DNA of 64,000 nucleotides from Candidatus Omnitrophota bacterium (lineage in GTDB: Bacteria; Ratteibacteria; UBA8468; B48-G9; JAFGKM01): positions 181,896-245,895 of the forward strand of contig JAMWDI010000002.1 in assembly GCA_023819375.1 (NCBI GenBank), in the 5' to 3' direction. The notes below the pieces were generated by a model. It did no database searches and was not told the DNA's origin. It saw nothing but the letters and a program-made list of their open reading frames with translations. Each line of letters opens with the position of its first letter. The first letter of the stretch is position 1. Positions 33,232-37,526 of the stretch are shown piece by piece. Made by a program: the position numbers and the translations under genes.

Positions 33232-33385
33232 TTATCTAAATTCAACTTGATAAATAAGAAAATAAAAAAGGCAACCTGATTTATCCAAGGAACGATTATT
33301 ACTACTACATTTTGAAGAAACAATACAGGAAGGACAACCTATTTATAATTTAATACAATTTCATAAATAATTTTTATAACTCTAT
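33232..33385 (-). pseudogene. Displaced, degenerate copy of the 3' end (zinc-ribbon/DUF1998 C-terminus) of the MrfA-like helicase gene
   Basis: The minus-strand translation [41 protein letters not shown] matches the helicase C-terminus [40 protein letters not shown]. About 110 nt of DNA is roughly 85% identical to 35357-35470. Confidence 0.55.
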
Positions 33386-33399
33386 TCAAAAGTGGGAGA

Positions 33400-33891
33400 A
33401 GGAGTGCCACCAGTAAATTATTAAAAATTTTTAAATAATTAGAAATTACTTTTTCTGTCCTTTAGATTTTTCTTCTTTAGGTTTTTTCTCACAAATTTTC
33501 ATTAAAATTAATTCTCCTGATTTTTTCTCTTTATAATGAACTGTAACTTGTTTACCCACTTGAAGTTTTTTAATTTCTTCCTGCATCTTTGGAGTAGTTG
33601 CTTTTAAAGTAATTTCTGTTCCATCTTCTTTCTTTATCTTTACTGTATTCGCAGTCGTATCAACACTTAAAACCTCTCCAATAACTTTCTGAACATTTGG
33701 TTTAGACTTTTCAGAACTTGCAGGCTGAGCAGGTGTCGCTGGTTGTGCTGGTGTTGCAGGTTGTGTTGTTGATTTTCCTTTTTCATTTGCTGAAAAAGTA
33801 ATTCCAGAGGAAAGAATGAAACATATTAAAACTGTCAATATCTTTTTCATTTTTCTCACCTCCTTTCTTTTTTAATTCTGGTGGCACTCCT
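33400..33891. repeat. Perfect 14-bp inverted repeat (AGGAGTGCCACCAG / CTGGTGGCACTCCT) bracketing the PATPAQ gene
   Basis: Left arm 33400-33413, right arm 33878-33891. The arms lie in the 3' UTR and 5' UTR of the minus-strand gene. Confidence 0.6.
33446..33850 (-). CDS. Secreted hypothetical protein with PATPAQ tandem repeats
   Basis: Start at the ATG at 33850 with a GGAGGTG RBS. Signal peptide, then (PATPAQ)x2-3, then a beta-rich C-terminal domain. Flanked by a 14-bp inverted repeat. Confidence 0.5.
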   Translation of the reverse strand: MKKILTVLICFILSSGITFSANEKGKSTTQPATPAQPATPAQPASSEKSKPNVQKVIGEVLSVDTTANTVKIKKEDGTEITLKATTPKMQEEIKKLQVGKQVTVHYKEKKSGELILMKICEKKPKEEKSKGQKK

Positions 33892-33926
33892 TTTTAATTA
33901 TATGATGAACTAAATTTTCAAAAGGT

Positions 33927-34307: not shown

Positions 34308-34713
34308 AAAAAACTAATTTCTTTAACTCTTCAAGATTTTTGACAATCTTATAATCCCTGTAAAAATGATAATATTTGGTTATATGTTGCACTTTTTCAA
34401 TTTTCACAAGATAATTAAGCACAAAAGAAAATATAAGTAAAAAAACTATCAATCCCTTTTTAAATTTAAGTTTTCTTATATTCCAAACTTGAATGTAATT
34501 TTCTATCCTGTTTATTATATTTTTCCTTAATTTTTCCCAGTAAAATTTATCTTTTTCAAATTTTTTATCTATAAGAAGTTCTTTCACAAAAATTAAATAT
34601 TCTCTACATCTATCGCAATTTTTTAAATGGTCATCTATTTTCTTTTTCTCTTCTTTTTTAAGTTTTTTTTCTAAATATAAGATTACAATTTCTTCAAATT
34701 TTTCACATTTCAT
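34279..34713 (-). CDS. Putative zinc-finger anti-sigma factor (zf-HC2-like) with one TM helix
   Basis: N-terminal HLKNCDRCREY Cys/His motif. A hydrophobic helix LIVFLLIFSFVLNYLV. Sits immediately downstream of an ECF sigma with an overlapping stop/start. Confidence 0.55.
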   Translation of the reverse strand: MKCEKFEEIVILYLEKKLKKEEKKKIDDHLKNCDRCREYLIFVKELLIDKKFEKDKFYWEKLRKNIINRIENYIQVWNIRKLKFKKGLIVFLLIFSFVLNYLVKIEKVQHITKYYHFYRDYKIVKNLEELKKLVFCENENECED

Positions 34714-35233
34714 TTTTTAGTATCTTTTTTAAGGAATTTACACCTCTAAAAATATGCACTTTAACAGTCCCTTCTTTACAATTTGTTATTTCTGAAATTT
34801 CTTTTATCTTTAATCCTTCAAAAAACTTCAATTCAATAACTTTCTTCTGCATAGGAGATAACCTTTCAAGCGCAACTCTAATCTTTTCTTTTATTTCTTC
34901 TTTGTTAAACTCCTCTATAATACTGGGCAATATAAATTTAACGTTTCCCAATCTGTTCAAAATATGTTTTTTTCTATATCTTTCTCTTAAATTTTTTCTT
35001 AAAAGATTTAGAGTTATTTTATATATCCAATTTGTAAGTGAATCGGAATTTCTCAAACTTTTCATTTTTCTAAAAGCGATCAGAAAAACCTCTTGTGTTA
35101 TATCTTCAGCATCCTGCGAATTATTTAAAAATCTATAAGCAATACCATAAACAAATCTCTCATATTTTTCAACTAATTCTTCAAAACTCTTTAATCCATT
35201 TTCAGCAAGTATTTTCTGTATTTCTTCTTCCAT
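34703..35233 (-). CDS. RNA polymerase ECF-type sigma-70 factor
   Basis: Region 2 (DAEDITQEVFLIAFRKM) and region 4 HTH (LKIKEISEITNCKEGTVKVHIFRGVNSLKKIL). Confidence 0.8.
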   Translation of the reverse strand: MEEEIQKILAENGLKSFEELVEKYERFVYGIAYRFLNNSQDAEDITQEVFLIAFRKMKSLRNSDSLTNWIYKITLNLLRKNLRERYRKKHILNRLGNVKFILPSIIEEFNKEEIKEKIRVALERLSPMQKKVIELKFFEGLKIKEISEITNCKEGTVKVHIFRGVNSLKKILKNEM

Positions 35234-35309
35234 TTTAATTATAAAAGATACAAATTAAATAAAAAAAGTTTACTCTGATTTTTAAATTTAACATTTAAAC
35301 CTTAACAAA

Positions 35310-37526
35310 TCAAAAATTTTCAATCAAATAGGAAAGTAAATATAAACAAGAAGATTTATCTAAAGGCCGGTTATTATTACCACATTTTGGAGAAACAATA
35401 CAGGAAGGACAACCCATTTCACATTTACAATTTAAAACAGTTTCATAAGCAGTTTTGATAATTTTTTCTACTCTTTCATATCCAAGTTTACTTATACCAA
35501 CTCCTCCAGGATAACCGTCATAAATAAAGATTGTTGCTTTTTGTGTTTGCAAATGGAAAGGAAAAGAATAGCCTCCTAAATCAAATCTATCACATGTAAC
35601 AGTAAGTGGAAAAATTCCTATCATAGAATGTTCTGCTGCATGAATACCTCCAGGGAAATCAAACTTCTTTTCTTTCATTTCAAAAACAACCTCATCTGGA
35701 ATTTCAATCCATAATGATTGTGTTTTAAATTTTTGAGGCGGCAAATTTAACATATAAGTCCCTATTAATGTTCTATCCCTTTCTTTTCTTTTTTCATAAC
35801 TTACGATTTGTTTGGTAACTTCTATATCTCCAAATTTTATTTTAAATTTATTACCCTTTTCTTTTTCAATATTTAAAATCTCTATTTTTTCCCACCAGTT
35901 TGGCTGAGTGTAATAATCAACAGCCACTTTTTCAACAACAACCATTTTTCTTTCAAAATTAATATATATAACCTCATATTTTTTCCCTTTATGTAAATAA
36001 ATTGCGCCAGGATGACATTCAAAAAAAACTTTATCTTCTTCAATTTCTCCAATTTGTTTTTCATCCTCTATTTCAAAAATTGAATAAATACTCCCTATAC
36101 TTCTTAAATTCAAATCCCAGTGAATAGGTCTTCCAAAATAATAGTATCTTCCATCTTTTGTTTTTGAAAATCTTTCTTTTTCAATTATTTTAATTAATAA
36201 ATCTCCATAAATCATCAAATCTTTCTCCAAATTTAATGGATACTCATAAGAAGCACATTTAAGATGATTACTGGATATTATTTCATTTTCAAAATTAATT
36301 ATCAAATCTTCAAACTGCCTTTTTATAAATTCATCTGGATTTCTTAGGAAATATTGATCAAGAGCATCTTCAAGTGCCATAAAAATTACAAGTCCTTCTC
36401 TTTTTCTTCCTACTCTTCCTATTCTCTGCCAAGCACTTATCATTGTGCCTGGATATCCAAATAAAATACACGTATCAAGATATCCAACATCAATACCAAG
36501 TTCAAGAGCACTTGTAGTGATTACACCTTTTAGTTCTCCTGTAAATAACTTTTTTTCTATTTCCCGTCTTTCTTCTGGTAAATAACCTGCTCTGTAAGAT
36601 GATATTAAATTTTCTATTTTTTTATCTTTTTTTATTATCCACATCTGTAATAATTCAGCAGATTTTCTACTATTTGTAAAAAGTATTGTTGACAACCCAT
36701 TTTCTATACTTTCTTTTAACAATTCAATTGCCTGTGTATAATATGACTCAAATTGAGAATCCCAGAAAATAATATATTTTTTAGGCTGAGGTGAGGAACT
36801 TTCATAAATAGTAAAAAATTCAACTCCAACAAGTTCTTTTGCAAATTTTTCTGGTTGATTTATTGTTGCTGAAAGCAAAATAAATTGAGGTTCACTTCCA
36901 TAAAGTTGACAAATCCTTCTTAATCTCCTTATCACATGACTTACATTACTTCCAAAAATACCTCTGTAAGTATGAATTTCATCTACAATTACAAACTTCA
37001 ATTTTGCAAAAAATCCTTTCCATTTTTCATGAAAAGGTAAAATTCCTGTATGAAGCATATCTGGATTTGTCAAAATTATATTAGGGAAATTTGCTCTTAT
37101 TTTTCTTCTTACATCTTCCGGTGTATCTCCATCATAAATTTCACTTCTCACAAATTCAAATTCTTTTAAATTTTTCAGTTGATCTTGAGTCAATGCTTTA
37201 GTTGGAAATATGTAAAGTGCTTTAATATGTGGATTTTTAAGTATTTCATTAAGTACAAAAATATTATAAATTAAAGTTTTCCCACTTCCAGTAGGAGTTG
37301 TAACTACTATATTTTTCCCCTCATTTAGTTTTTCAAGTCCTTCTTTTTGGTGTAAATATATCTTATTTATGTTTCTTTTATTTAATTGCTCTTTTAAAAA
37401 TGGAGAAATAAAGCTGGGGATAGAGAAAAACTCTCCTTCTTTTTCTTTTAACTCAATCACTTTGATAACATTTTTTTTATACTTTTGCTTAAGATATTCA
37501 ACAAATTCTTTAATTTTTTCTTCCAC
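35310..37526 (-). CDS. DEAD/DEAH-box helicase with C-terminal DUF1998 zinc ribbon (MrfA/YprA-like)
   Basis: Motif I TPTGSGKT, motif II DEIH, helicase C domain, C-terminal [20 protein letters not shown]. Confidence 0.85.
   Translation of the reverse strand: [738 protein letters not shown]

Follow-up and report, generated by a model that had tools for sequence, protein, structure and literature searches.

How did an operon that carries no recombinase come to lie between two neighbouring genes, with the 3′ end of one of them standing on both of its sides? The question is raised by a locus of a Candidatus Omnitrophota bacterium (GCA_023819375.1, contig JAMWDI010000002.1), within a 64-kb stretch of DNA (181,896–245,895, forward strand) that we call the window. 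Here ~1.9 kb containing an extracytoplasmic function (ECF) sigma factor operon separates a helicase gene from a serine hydrolase gene, and the end of the helicase gene is found at both boundaries (Table 1).

Table 1 Features of the locus, in window coordinates.
Feature	Position	Strand	Remarks
Beta-lactamase-family serine hydrolase	32164..33189	-	Pfam PF00144
Ancestral helicase-hydrolase spacer, attached to copy A	33190..33231	-	Aligns with the 43-49-nt spacers of empty-site genomes
Copy A, dead duplicate of the helicase 3′ end	33232..33395	-	Helicase residues ~686-736
3′ arm of predicted long-range helix, CTGGTGGCACTCCTT	33399..33413	-	Right end of operon DNA; in minimum-energy and centroid folds
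Secreted Pro/Ala/Thr-rich protein (CusF-like), 137 aa	33446..33859	-	Weak C-terminal CusF-like domain, Pfam CusF_Ec E=7e-4, below cut-off
5′ arm of predicted long-range helix, coding strand AAGGAGTGCCACCAG	33878..33892	-	
Second putative ECF-type promoter, upstream of CusF-like gene	33901..33930	-	
Small membrane-anchored protein	33927..34307	-	Weak DUF3106 similarity, below cut-off
Anti-sigma factor, N-terminal zf-HC2, 144 aa	34279..34713	-	Pfam zf-HC2 E=8e-7
ECF sigma factor, 176 aa	34703..35233	-	Pfam Sigma70_r2, r4_2, Sigma70_ECF; NCBIfam TIGR02937
Putative ECF-type promoter of sigma gene, GTAAAC-N19-TCWWW	35244..35273	-	
Left junction, 36 nt between helicase stop and operon promoter	35274..35309	-	
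Copy B, working helicase 3′ end (proximal repeat)	35310..35469	-	Cys-rich Zn-binding tail; similarity may reach ~35492
MrfA/YprA-family helicase gene, intact, 738 aa	35310..37526	-	Pfam DEAD, Helicase_C, WHD_HRQ1, MZB (DUF1998)

The duplicated helicase 3′ end

The helicase combines DEAD and Helicase_C domains with a winged helix and a C-terminal MZB zinc-binding domain, the composition of the MrfA/YprA (DUF1998) family (PMC7797055); its TIGR03817 score of 677 lies below the cut-off of 874. Its nearest relatives are 80–81% identical and have identical upstream synteny.

The last ~160–185 nt of this gene occur twice. A direct repeat of 75 nt (33278–33352 and 35353–35427) is 84% identical and ungapped, blastn aligns the two copies over 136 nt at 76.5% identity (33252–33379 with 35326–35461, E=8e-23), and tblastn matches helicase residues 686–736 to 33241–33389 (E=1.7e-9). 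Their local alignment scores 116, where shuffles average 24.7 (sd 3.7, z=24.5) and 0 of 2000 reached as high a value. The preliminary description had reported this duplication and had named pairwise alignment as the check for low-complexity noise; such noise is ruled out by the scores above, and the peptides it quoted for the two copies are exactly those encoded on the minus strand. Beyond the duplicate, no further helicase fragment was found in the 64-kb window, and a shuffle test gave no significant sign that the duplication runs past the stop codon of copy B into the spacer behind it. Across both junctions, 18.2 kb of an independent Logan assembly (SRR21619497) match at 100% identity and, because the copies differ by 16–25%, a repeat-collapse artefact is not plausible.

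Copy A was earlier described as interrupted by stops, and indeed it contains three in the helicase frame along with 7-nt and 1-nt deletions relative to copy B, by which it is judged a dead duplicate. Its 18 private substitutions in 144 aligned nucleotides are evenly spread (p=0.47), as neutral decay predicts, suggesting that it is decaying neutrally. Copy B, whose tail reads TCTTCTTGTTTATATTTACTTTCCTATTTGATTGAAAATTTT, has 10 private substitutions in the same 144 nt, 9 of them within the last 61 nt. Identity between the copies peaks at 92–95% in the centre and declines on both sides, a non-uniformity (p=0.016) that mirrors the variability between lineages. A block of 24 nt is identical in both copies and nearly invariant in all functional helicase genes (8% mean difference).

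Whether the working end is native or imported was approached through these private changes. Compared with the working tails of X and L002, the tail of copy A shows 82–85% identity and that of copy B only 66–68%. Over the last 61 nt there are 9 changes private to copy B and 7 private to copy A (p=0.8); since the working copy has no excess over the dead one, native duplication and foreign replacement are indistinguishable. Of the earlier proposal that an inserted element supplied a replacement 3′ end, the displaced end is upheld, and the working end may equally be native or imported. A GAT (Asp) codon is present in both window copies and absent from all eight others compared (X, Y and six relatives, L002–L007), so that, barring gene conversion, the duplication belongs to the branch of the window itself. 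The window and X differ at 43% of fourfold sites.

Empty sites and the inserted operon

Three sister genomes (L002, L003/L004 and L006) share the window's RuvABC-uppS-dxr-rseP-ispG-helicase synteny, and in each the hydrolase starts 44–50 nt after the helicase stop, representing an empty site. Comparison with related genomes had been suggested beforehand as a way to find such a direct helicase-hydrolase succession, and its presence in all three supports the view that the block is an insertion at the helicase 3′ end, between helicase and hydrolase. The hydrolase, judged by gene order, is the helicase's original downstream neighbour. In the window it is followed by an SPFH pseudogene and then by a DUF1559 upstream region. 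The spacer between copy A and the hydrolase aligns with those of the empty sites, with shuffles scoring as high in 9/3000 (L002), 5/3000 (L006) and 108/3000 (L003) trials. Copy A, still joined to an ancestral spacer that matches the empty-site genomes, is thus the displaced original end, in agreement with the preliminary description. The left junction displays no significant similarity to the relatives' helicase-hydrolase spacer. A composition check revealed no GC anomaly over the block.

The insert runs in the order promoter, sigma factor, anti-sigma factor, membrane protein, second promoter, CusF-like gene and 3′ RNA arm, and Pfam bears out the gene content previously read from it. The sigma factor has sigma-70 regions 2 and 4 only and adjoins an HC2 anti-sigma factor, as in ECF/zf-HC2 modules; domains PF04542, PF08281, PF07638 and PF13490 all exceed their cut-offs, and the anti-sigma factor has weak RsrA/anti-sigma-E matches. 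The membrane-anchored protein is encoded by the third gene of the operon in every lineage. Only six homologues of the CusF-like protein were found among 5.8 billion proteins.

GTAAAC-N19-TCWWW is matched only twice within the 64-kb window, each time at a putative promoter of the operon. The sigma promoter motif is kept with fixed spacing in L022, L023, L026 and L031, and its -10 box deviates from TCWWW in L028 (CTTAT) and L029 (ACTAA); motif and spacing before the CusF-like gene recur in L008/L028, L022, L023, L026 and L031. Sigma-70 promoter matches were not above chance, a terminator scan returned no intrinsic terminators, and no Rfam family matched over 33100–35500.

A 15-bp helix with three compensatory pairs is predicted to enclose the CusF-like ORF. 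We also considered whether its 15-nt inverted repeat could delimit a miniature mobile element, and rejected this: the repeat flanks the CusF-like gene alone, occurs at the rtcB-linked loci too, and co-varies like an RNA helix.

Elsewhere the operon occupies several addresses. In more distant relatives it lies beside rtcB (L022, L023–25, L026 and L030), a gene absent from the 64-kb window, and these operons share boundaries with that of the window, the promoter box on the left, where homology begins at GTAAAC, and the RNA arm on the right. Two other filled sites follow the helicase 3′ end: in L028/L008 the operon precedes hydrolase and LDcluster4, and in L029/L027 it precedes DUF1559 and ZnuA, with the DUF1559 upstream region of L027 within ~20 nt of the operon 3′ arm. 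In trees of the operon proteins, the three filled lineages group as a single clade. In host trees of the helicase C-terminus and the hydrolase, the filled lineages are not clearly united against the empty ones, so the operon may have been gained more than once, or gained and then lost. Neither of the two other filled lineages, both deep, has a detectable relic resembling copy A; a decayed helicase relic in the L008/L028 spacer, plausible by eye, did not rise above shuffles (z=0.3). A metagenome scan with CusF-like peptide patterns gave no match, and from a second one, based on an alignment of the sigma factor, came only L030 and L031, two close loci. The sigma homologues P0143 and P0145 probably come from empty-site MAGs, judging by accession proximity.

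How the operon may have reached the junction

The footprint resembles that of e14 and phage 21, which in E. coli K-12 integrate into icd at its 3′ end and leave the C-terminal pseudogene icdC; recombination between the copies restores a single chimeric gene (PMC13626634). As there, the 3′ end of a protein-coding gene is directly repeated on both sides of the insert, with a proximal copy that completes the gene, intact at that boundary, and a distal copy reduced to a displaced C-terminal fragment, and related genomes have an empty site. Yet e14 is a prophage with integrase, excisionase and SOS-induced excision, whereas the present locus has a regulatory operon as cargo, repeats diverged by 16–25%, a dead distal copy and no recombinase, phage or conjugation gene. 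The four ORFs fill the insert and leave no space for a recombinase. In the 18 kb around it no domain of an integrase or transposase was called, in keeping with the earlier statement that an integrase is missing, and no recombinase or element gene was found in the filled loci L008, L028 and L029. Nor did we detect phage, conjugation or mobilisation genes; the cargo is the conserved chromosomal ECF operon. A transposon or insertion sequence was rejected, there being no transposase, the sole strong inverted repeat flanking an internal gene, and the duplication measuring 160–185 nt, not 2–15 bp. By its gene content, then, the insert cannot be recognised as a mobile element: of the initial reading as a mobile element or its remnant, the insertion stands but the element does not, and what is found in its place is a chromosomal operon that is conserved and has putative promoters of its own.

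On balance, and with moderate confidence, we lean towards relocation of the ECF operon into the helicase/hydrolase junction without a dedicated recombinase, duplicating the target. A complete, presumably self-regulated operon would have moved into the junction between the MrfA-type helicase and the serine hydrolase, and the insertion would have duplicated the last ~160–185 nt of the helicase gene. The proximal copy would have stayed fused to the gene body and kept the zinc-binding C-terminus, so that selection would have tolerated only an outcome with an intact C-terminus; the distal copy, attached to the former spacer and the hydrolase gene, would have lost its function and decayed neutrally. 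Joining may have been by host recombination or replication, illegitimate or homology-assisted. The event would be old, dating from about the split between the three filled lineages. Against this stand the shared GAT, which places the duplication on the window's branch, the failure to detect a relic in X, and host trees in which the filled lineages fail to stand clearly together, apart from the empty ones.

Those same scattered states would be explained if an empty-site lineage had taken up a helicase 3′ end together with the operon from a related filled lineage by homologous exchange, a possible but rather unlikely history. The exchange might have been a Campbell-type single crossover of a circularised fragment, or a one-sided homologous crossover completed by illegitimate joining; copy B would then have a foreign tail, copy A would be the freshly displaced native end, and the repeats could allow later RecA-dependent loss and regain. 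GAT and the 18/144 changes of copy A, set against the 43% fourfold difference to X, suggest a displacement younger than that split, and the central, non-uniform peak of identity between the copies and the closer likeness of copy A's tail to X and L002 also favour the exchange. However, a weakly constrained native tail fits the private changes equally well, no donor lineage with the tail of copy B was found, and GAT in both copies means that a Campbell crossover would need a donor very near the window lineage. An integrase-mediated element of the e14/icd type, carrying a surrogate 3′ end and later losing its integrase by deletion, is very unlikely. It could draw on the 24-nt block identical in both copies, but with its near-invariance among functional genes that block need not be an att core; the locus has neither a recombinase nor room for one, no element genes occur in any of the three filled lineages, and what it carries is a chromosomal operon, conserved and equipped with regulatory signals of its own, which relatives keep at another locus.

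The polarity could also be reversed, with a resident helicase-operon-DUF1559 arrangement like that of L029/L027 receiving a truncated helicase end, the spacer and the hydrolase, perhaps with the SPFH gene. The close approach of DUF1559 to the operon arm in L027 would suit such a history, which we nonetheless consider scarcely probable: L028 has operon, hydrolase and LDcluster4, the empty-site order plus the operon, which marks the hydrolase as the ancestral neighbour and L027 as a deletion, a fragment landing just downstream of its own source gene would be a coincidence, and copy A carries the window-specific GAT. A paralogous helicase relic, chance low-complexity similarity or an assembly artefact is highly improbable; the AT-rich background is all that speaks for it, and it is opposed by the z-score against shuffles, the identical independent assembly, a duplication confined to residues 686–736 and flush with the operon 3′ arm, and the single helicase at this locus in relatives. 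Finally, we think it doubtful that the duplicated 3′ ends act as portable homology arms, from which the operon is excised as a circle and reinserted into the corresponding gene end of related genomes by host RecA alone. Such a cassette would account for the patchiness of filled and empty sites, for the shared GAT and for a relic that can still be recognised.

Parallels and meaning

Homology-facilitated illegitimate recombination and Campbell-type single crossover are laboratory-defined mechanisms described for naturally transformable bacteria. The locus would be like their products in that foreign or relocated DNA is integrated through one stretch of homology and without a dedicated recombinase, and a single crossover likewise duplicates the region of homology on both sides of the insert. 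The cargo itself resembles known ECF/ZAS (zf-HC2) modules in its Sigma70_r2/r4 domains, its adjacent anti-sigma factor, which has an HC2 zinc finger at the N-terminus and spans the membrane once, and the conserved bipartite motif before the sigma gene and a downstream target gene. It differs from them in the DUF3106-like and CusF-like genes and the mRNA-enclosing helix, which are specific to a small clade, few homologues having turned up among 5.8 billion proteins.

The locus is a real but fairly ordinary genome-rearrangement scar. In a lineage that is Omnitrophota/Ratteibacteria-like, it cleanly documents a whole regulatory operon at a new chromosomal address, together with empty sites, other filled sites, an ancestral address and a scar that leaves the interrupted gene intact. 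Since a 3′-end duplication footprint, commonly taken to mark an integrase-borne island, can arise without mobile-element genes, annotators should not call a genomic island from the footprint alone. The covarying helix around a putatively ECF-controlled mRNA and the well-defined candidate ECF promoter motif may prove more valuable than the scar itself. If true, repeat-mediated loss and regain through RecA would give related genomes a minimal means of exchanging operons, and a RecA-dependent cassette of this kind would represent an integrase-free, repeat-mobilised operon in an uncultivated phylum.

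A duplicated helicase 3' end encloses a four-gene operon

The duplicated region lies on the minus strand of a genome with 28% GC. The helicase has the domain set of the MrfA/YprA architecture (family description PMC7797055), and its final ~160 nt are present again 2.08 kb downstream. We refer to the functional end (35310-35469) as copy B and to the downstream duplicate as copy A. The two are 84% identical without gaps over 33278-33352 versus 35353-35427, blastn joins 136 nt at 76.5% identity (E=8e-23), tblastn matches 33241-33389 to helicase residues 686-736, and their local alignment score of 116 is far above that of 2000 dinucleotide-preserving shuffles (24.7 +/- 3.7). 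These values confirm the duplication proposed in the preliminary description, whose quoted peptides are exact. Copy A is also stop-interrupted, as described there: three stops interrupt the helicase frame, a 7-nt deletion has taken out some of the Cys cluster, a further 1 nt is deleted from the tail, and the copy cannot encode anything. No helicase pieces besides copies A and B were found in the 64-kb window. The SRR21619497 Logan assembly, which may derive from the same reads as the window assembly, is 100% identical across 18,217 nt including both junctions. Copies A and B differ enough to make a repeat-collapse artefact implausible.

Four genes, all in one direction, occupy the interval between the copies. 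Domain calls agree with the content first read from the sequence, namely an ECF sigma factor, a zinc-finger anti-sigma, a small membrane protein and a repeat-type secreted protein. The reported lack of an integrase also held: the four genes leave no space for a recombinase, and none is listed among the genes of the 18-kb Logan locus. That locus carries ispG, rseP, dxr, uppS and ruvABC on one flank and the hydrolase, DUF1559 pilin-like, ZnuABC, methyltransferase and PadR genes on the other. Base composition does not distinguish the insert from its surroundings.

Features of the helicase-operon locus (window coordinates)
Feature	Position	Strand	Remarks
Helicase, 738 aa	35310-37526	-	DEAD, Helicase_C, WHD_HRQ1, MZB (DUF1998)
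Bipartite motif upstream of sigma gene	35244-35273	-	
ECF sigma factor	34703-35233	-	
Anti-sigma	34279-34713	-	zf-HC2 at N-terminus
Small membrane-anchored protein	33927-34307	-	DUF3106 match below threshold
Bipartite motif upstream of CusF-like gene	33901-33930	-	
Secreted Pro/Ala/Thr-rich protein (CusF-like)	33446-33859	-	CusF match below threshold
Copy A	about 33232-33395	-	Downstream non-coding duplicate of helicase end

Putative promoters, a likely long-range helix and the borders of the operon

Upstream of the sigma gene, a GTAAAC(C/T)TTTT box is followed after exactly 19 nt by a second box of the (T/C)C(T/A) type, and in every lineage this bipartite motif also stands ahead of the CusF-like gene. 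The spacing is constant upstream of both genes in all related loci read; the second box upstream of sigma deviates from TCWWW in L028 and L029, two related contigs described below. The pattern GTAAAC-N19-TCWWW has only two matches in the 64-kb window, both at the operon, and as judged from sequence the two motifs are likely promoters for the sigma factor itself, one autoregulatory and one target. In L028 (540-590) the helicase stop TAA falls within the GTAAAC box, so that gene end and putative sigma promoter overlap.

A perfect inverted repeat, with 15-nt arms at 33878-33892 and 33399-33413 in the minus-strand transcript, flanks the CusF-like ORF on both sides; its chance expectation is 0.38 when up to three mismatches are allowed. 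Its 5' arm lies between the second promoter motif, just upstream, and the ribosome-binding site, and its 3' arm lies beyond the stop codon, with a T-run next in most lineages. The arms, separated by 473-515 nt, recur in the related loci L008/L028, L022, L023, L026, L027/L029, L030 and L031. Across seven lineages 95% of cells pair, the pairing register is unique against slid controls, and at three of the 15 pairs both bases have changed in a compensatory way (G-C to C-G, C-G to U-A, A-U to G-C). The 15-bp helix closes the 516-nt transcript in its minimum-energy fold and in its centroid fold; Rfam has no match for the region. The covariation is consistent with an RNA helix that brings the two ends of the mRNA together; the two arms may also have a DNA-level role. 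A 5'-3' mRNA helix could serve transcript stabilisation or RNase III processing.

Alignment with the upstream regions of operons found beside rtcB in other genomes shows that homology with the window starts at the GTAAAC(C/T)TTTT box, and on the right the conserved 15-nt arm ends the operon. By these two conserved borders, a complete unit from putative promoter to 3' arm, at about 35273-33399, would have been relocated. Between it and the helicase stop are 36 unassigned nt, and between it and copy A are ~3 nt (33396-33398), or ~11 nt if copy A starts at 33387.

Empty and filled sites in related genomes

The nearest helicase relatives are MAG proteins of 79-81% identity labelled Omnitrophica or Ratteibacteria. 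Three of these genomes, L002 (GCA_023818745), L003 (GCA_046296715, with Logan contig L004) and L006 (GCA_023818645), keep the upstream order ruvC-ruvA-ruvB-ABC-uppS-dxr-rseP-ispG-helicase, and a Beta-lactamase-family hydrolase starts 44-50 nt past the helicase stop. The empty site sought among relatives, with the helicase directly before the serine hydrolase, thus exists. The window has a 41-nt spacer between copy A and the hydrolase ATG, and this spacer can be aligned with those of the empty sites (shuffles scoring as high: L002 9/3000, L006 5/3000, L003 108/3000). Copy A, spacer and hydrolase therefore represent the old arrangement, which the operon parts from the gene body, and the reading of copy A as the displaced original end is upheld. 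In L005 (GCA_023818785, 7833-10046) an 80%-identical helicase orthologue lies between GH123/Laminin_G genes upstream and Fe-ADH downstream; both neighbourhoods are wholly unlike those at the other sites, so in this genome it is the helicase gene that has moved.

The CusF-like protein and the sigma factor have few homologues. The same four genes stand divergently beside rtcB in L022 (GCA_049970595), L023/L024/L025, L026 and L030, with differing right-hand neighbours, and in a further context in L031. The 3.9-kb contig L028 (GCA_025059975) reads helicase 3' end, sigma operon, ~150 nt, hydrolase and opposite-strand LDcluster4, which is the exact order of the empty sites plus the operon; L008 is a near-identical partial copy. 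The L028 hydrolase (2566-3582) is interrupted by an in-frame TAA where L008 reads AAA. L029 begins with the helicase 3' end and has the putative sigma promoter and operon 115 nt on. L027, 98% identical to L029 over a 219-nt overlap, runs from the CusF-like gene and 3' arm directly into DUF1559-ZnuA genes, which in the window come only after the hydrolase and an apparent SPFH pseudogene; L027 lacks the hydrolase. The operon thus sits at the helicase end in three lineages, that of the window (W), L028/L008 (X) and L029/L027 (Y). Their operon proteins form one clade (sigma 66-70% identical), separate from the rtcB-linked clade (55-62%). A helicase relic seen by eye in X, in ~110 nt between 3' arm and hydrolase, was dropped (z=0.3 against shuffles).

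Two sigma homologues, P0143 and P0145, have accessions 1530 and 453 numbers away from the helicases of L002 and L005, respectively, and are probably from the same MAGs. P0145 clusters with the rtcB-linked sigma clade (72-79%). This suggests that genomes with an empty helicase site retain the operon at its other address.

We compared the downstream flank (29842-33189) with L002, L003, L006, L028 and L027. Beyond the hydrolase, the first four carry LDcluster4 on the opposite strand, and the window carries the apparent SPFH pseudogene and then DUF1559 and ZnuABC; in L027 the upstream region of DUF1559 is joined straight onto the operon. Given these lineage-to-lineage differences, the helicase 3' flank looks like a hot spot for rearrangement. 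Where synteny breaks between the hydrolase and the DUF1559-ZnuABC genes (31490-32160, minus strand), short ORFs at 31527-31697, 31732-31884 and 31899-32102 resemble one stop-broken SPFH/band-7 (stomatin/HflC-like) gene, which looks like a second pseudogene.

Age of the duplication and possible routes of insertion

To polarise the differences between the copies we used X together with five more functional genes. Of 144 aligned nt, 18 are substituted in copy A alone, and these private changes are distributed evenly among three segments (p=0.47), the pattern that neutral decay would give. Nine of the 10 private substitutions of copy B fall in the final 61 nt, where copy A has seven, no difference (p=0.8). 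The A/B identity profile is non-uniform (p=0.016), with a maximum of 92-95% over a stretch of 10 codons and lower values on both sides, and equals the between-lineage variability of functional genes (mean pairwise differences per segment 21%, 8% and 27%). Against the functional tails of X and L002, identity is 82-85% for the tail of copy A and only 66-68% for that of copy B; the latter may be native and weakly constrained, or it may be imported. Both window copies have GAT (Asp) where all eight others (X, Y and six relatives, L002-L007) have AGT, AGC or TGT. At fourfold-degenerate sites W and X differ by 43% (19/44); for comparison, the two tails differ by 34%, and the private changes of copy A amount to 12.5%. 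The hydrolase is 71% identical between W and X, 68% between W and the L002 clade and 67-70% between X and that clade, and W is on a long branch in the helicase C-terminus. Taken as a whole, these sequences date the duplication as old: either it seems somewhat more recent than the separation of W and X, or gene conversion has exchanged sequence between the copies.

A complete operon was inserted between two formerly adjacent genes, with the 3' end of the upstream gene duplicated at its flanks. Insertion 160-185 nt inside the helicase would destroy the zinc-binding domain, so only events that supplied a second 3' end could persist; the joining would have been by host recombination or replication. 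We lean towards a single old event that duplicated the target, at or close to the ancestor shared by W, X and Y; template switching or unequal sister exchange might have produced it. On this reading, X and Y later lost the relic, and in W it underwent partial conversion. Later re-acquisition by W from a closely related filled lineage, through one crossover with a circular 'helicase end + operon' fragment or a one-sided homologous plus illegitimate join, would make the copy B tail a true replacement end, and we regard it as rather unlikely; both weights are our judgement, not computed values. Of the inserted element with a replacement 3' end proposed in the preliminary description, the insertion and displaced end are real, but a mobile element is absent, and import of the 3' end is only one possibility. 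L028 contradicts the reverse scenario, in which helicase and operon were already together and a hydrolase fragment landed behind them. The locus matches the geometry of e14 (PMC13626634) but has no recombinase and carries another type of cargo, and the 24-nt block identical in its two copies is nearly invariant among functional helicase genes too (8% mean difference), which leaves the specificity of an att core in doubt; we regard an e14-like integrase element minus its integrase as very unlikely. The locus is a fresh example of an already known type of rearrangement scar.
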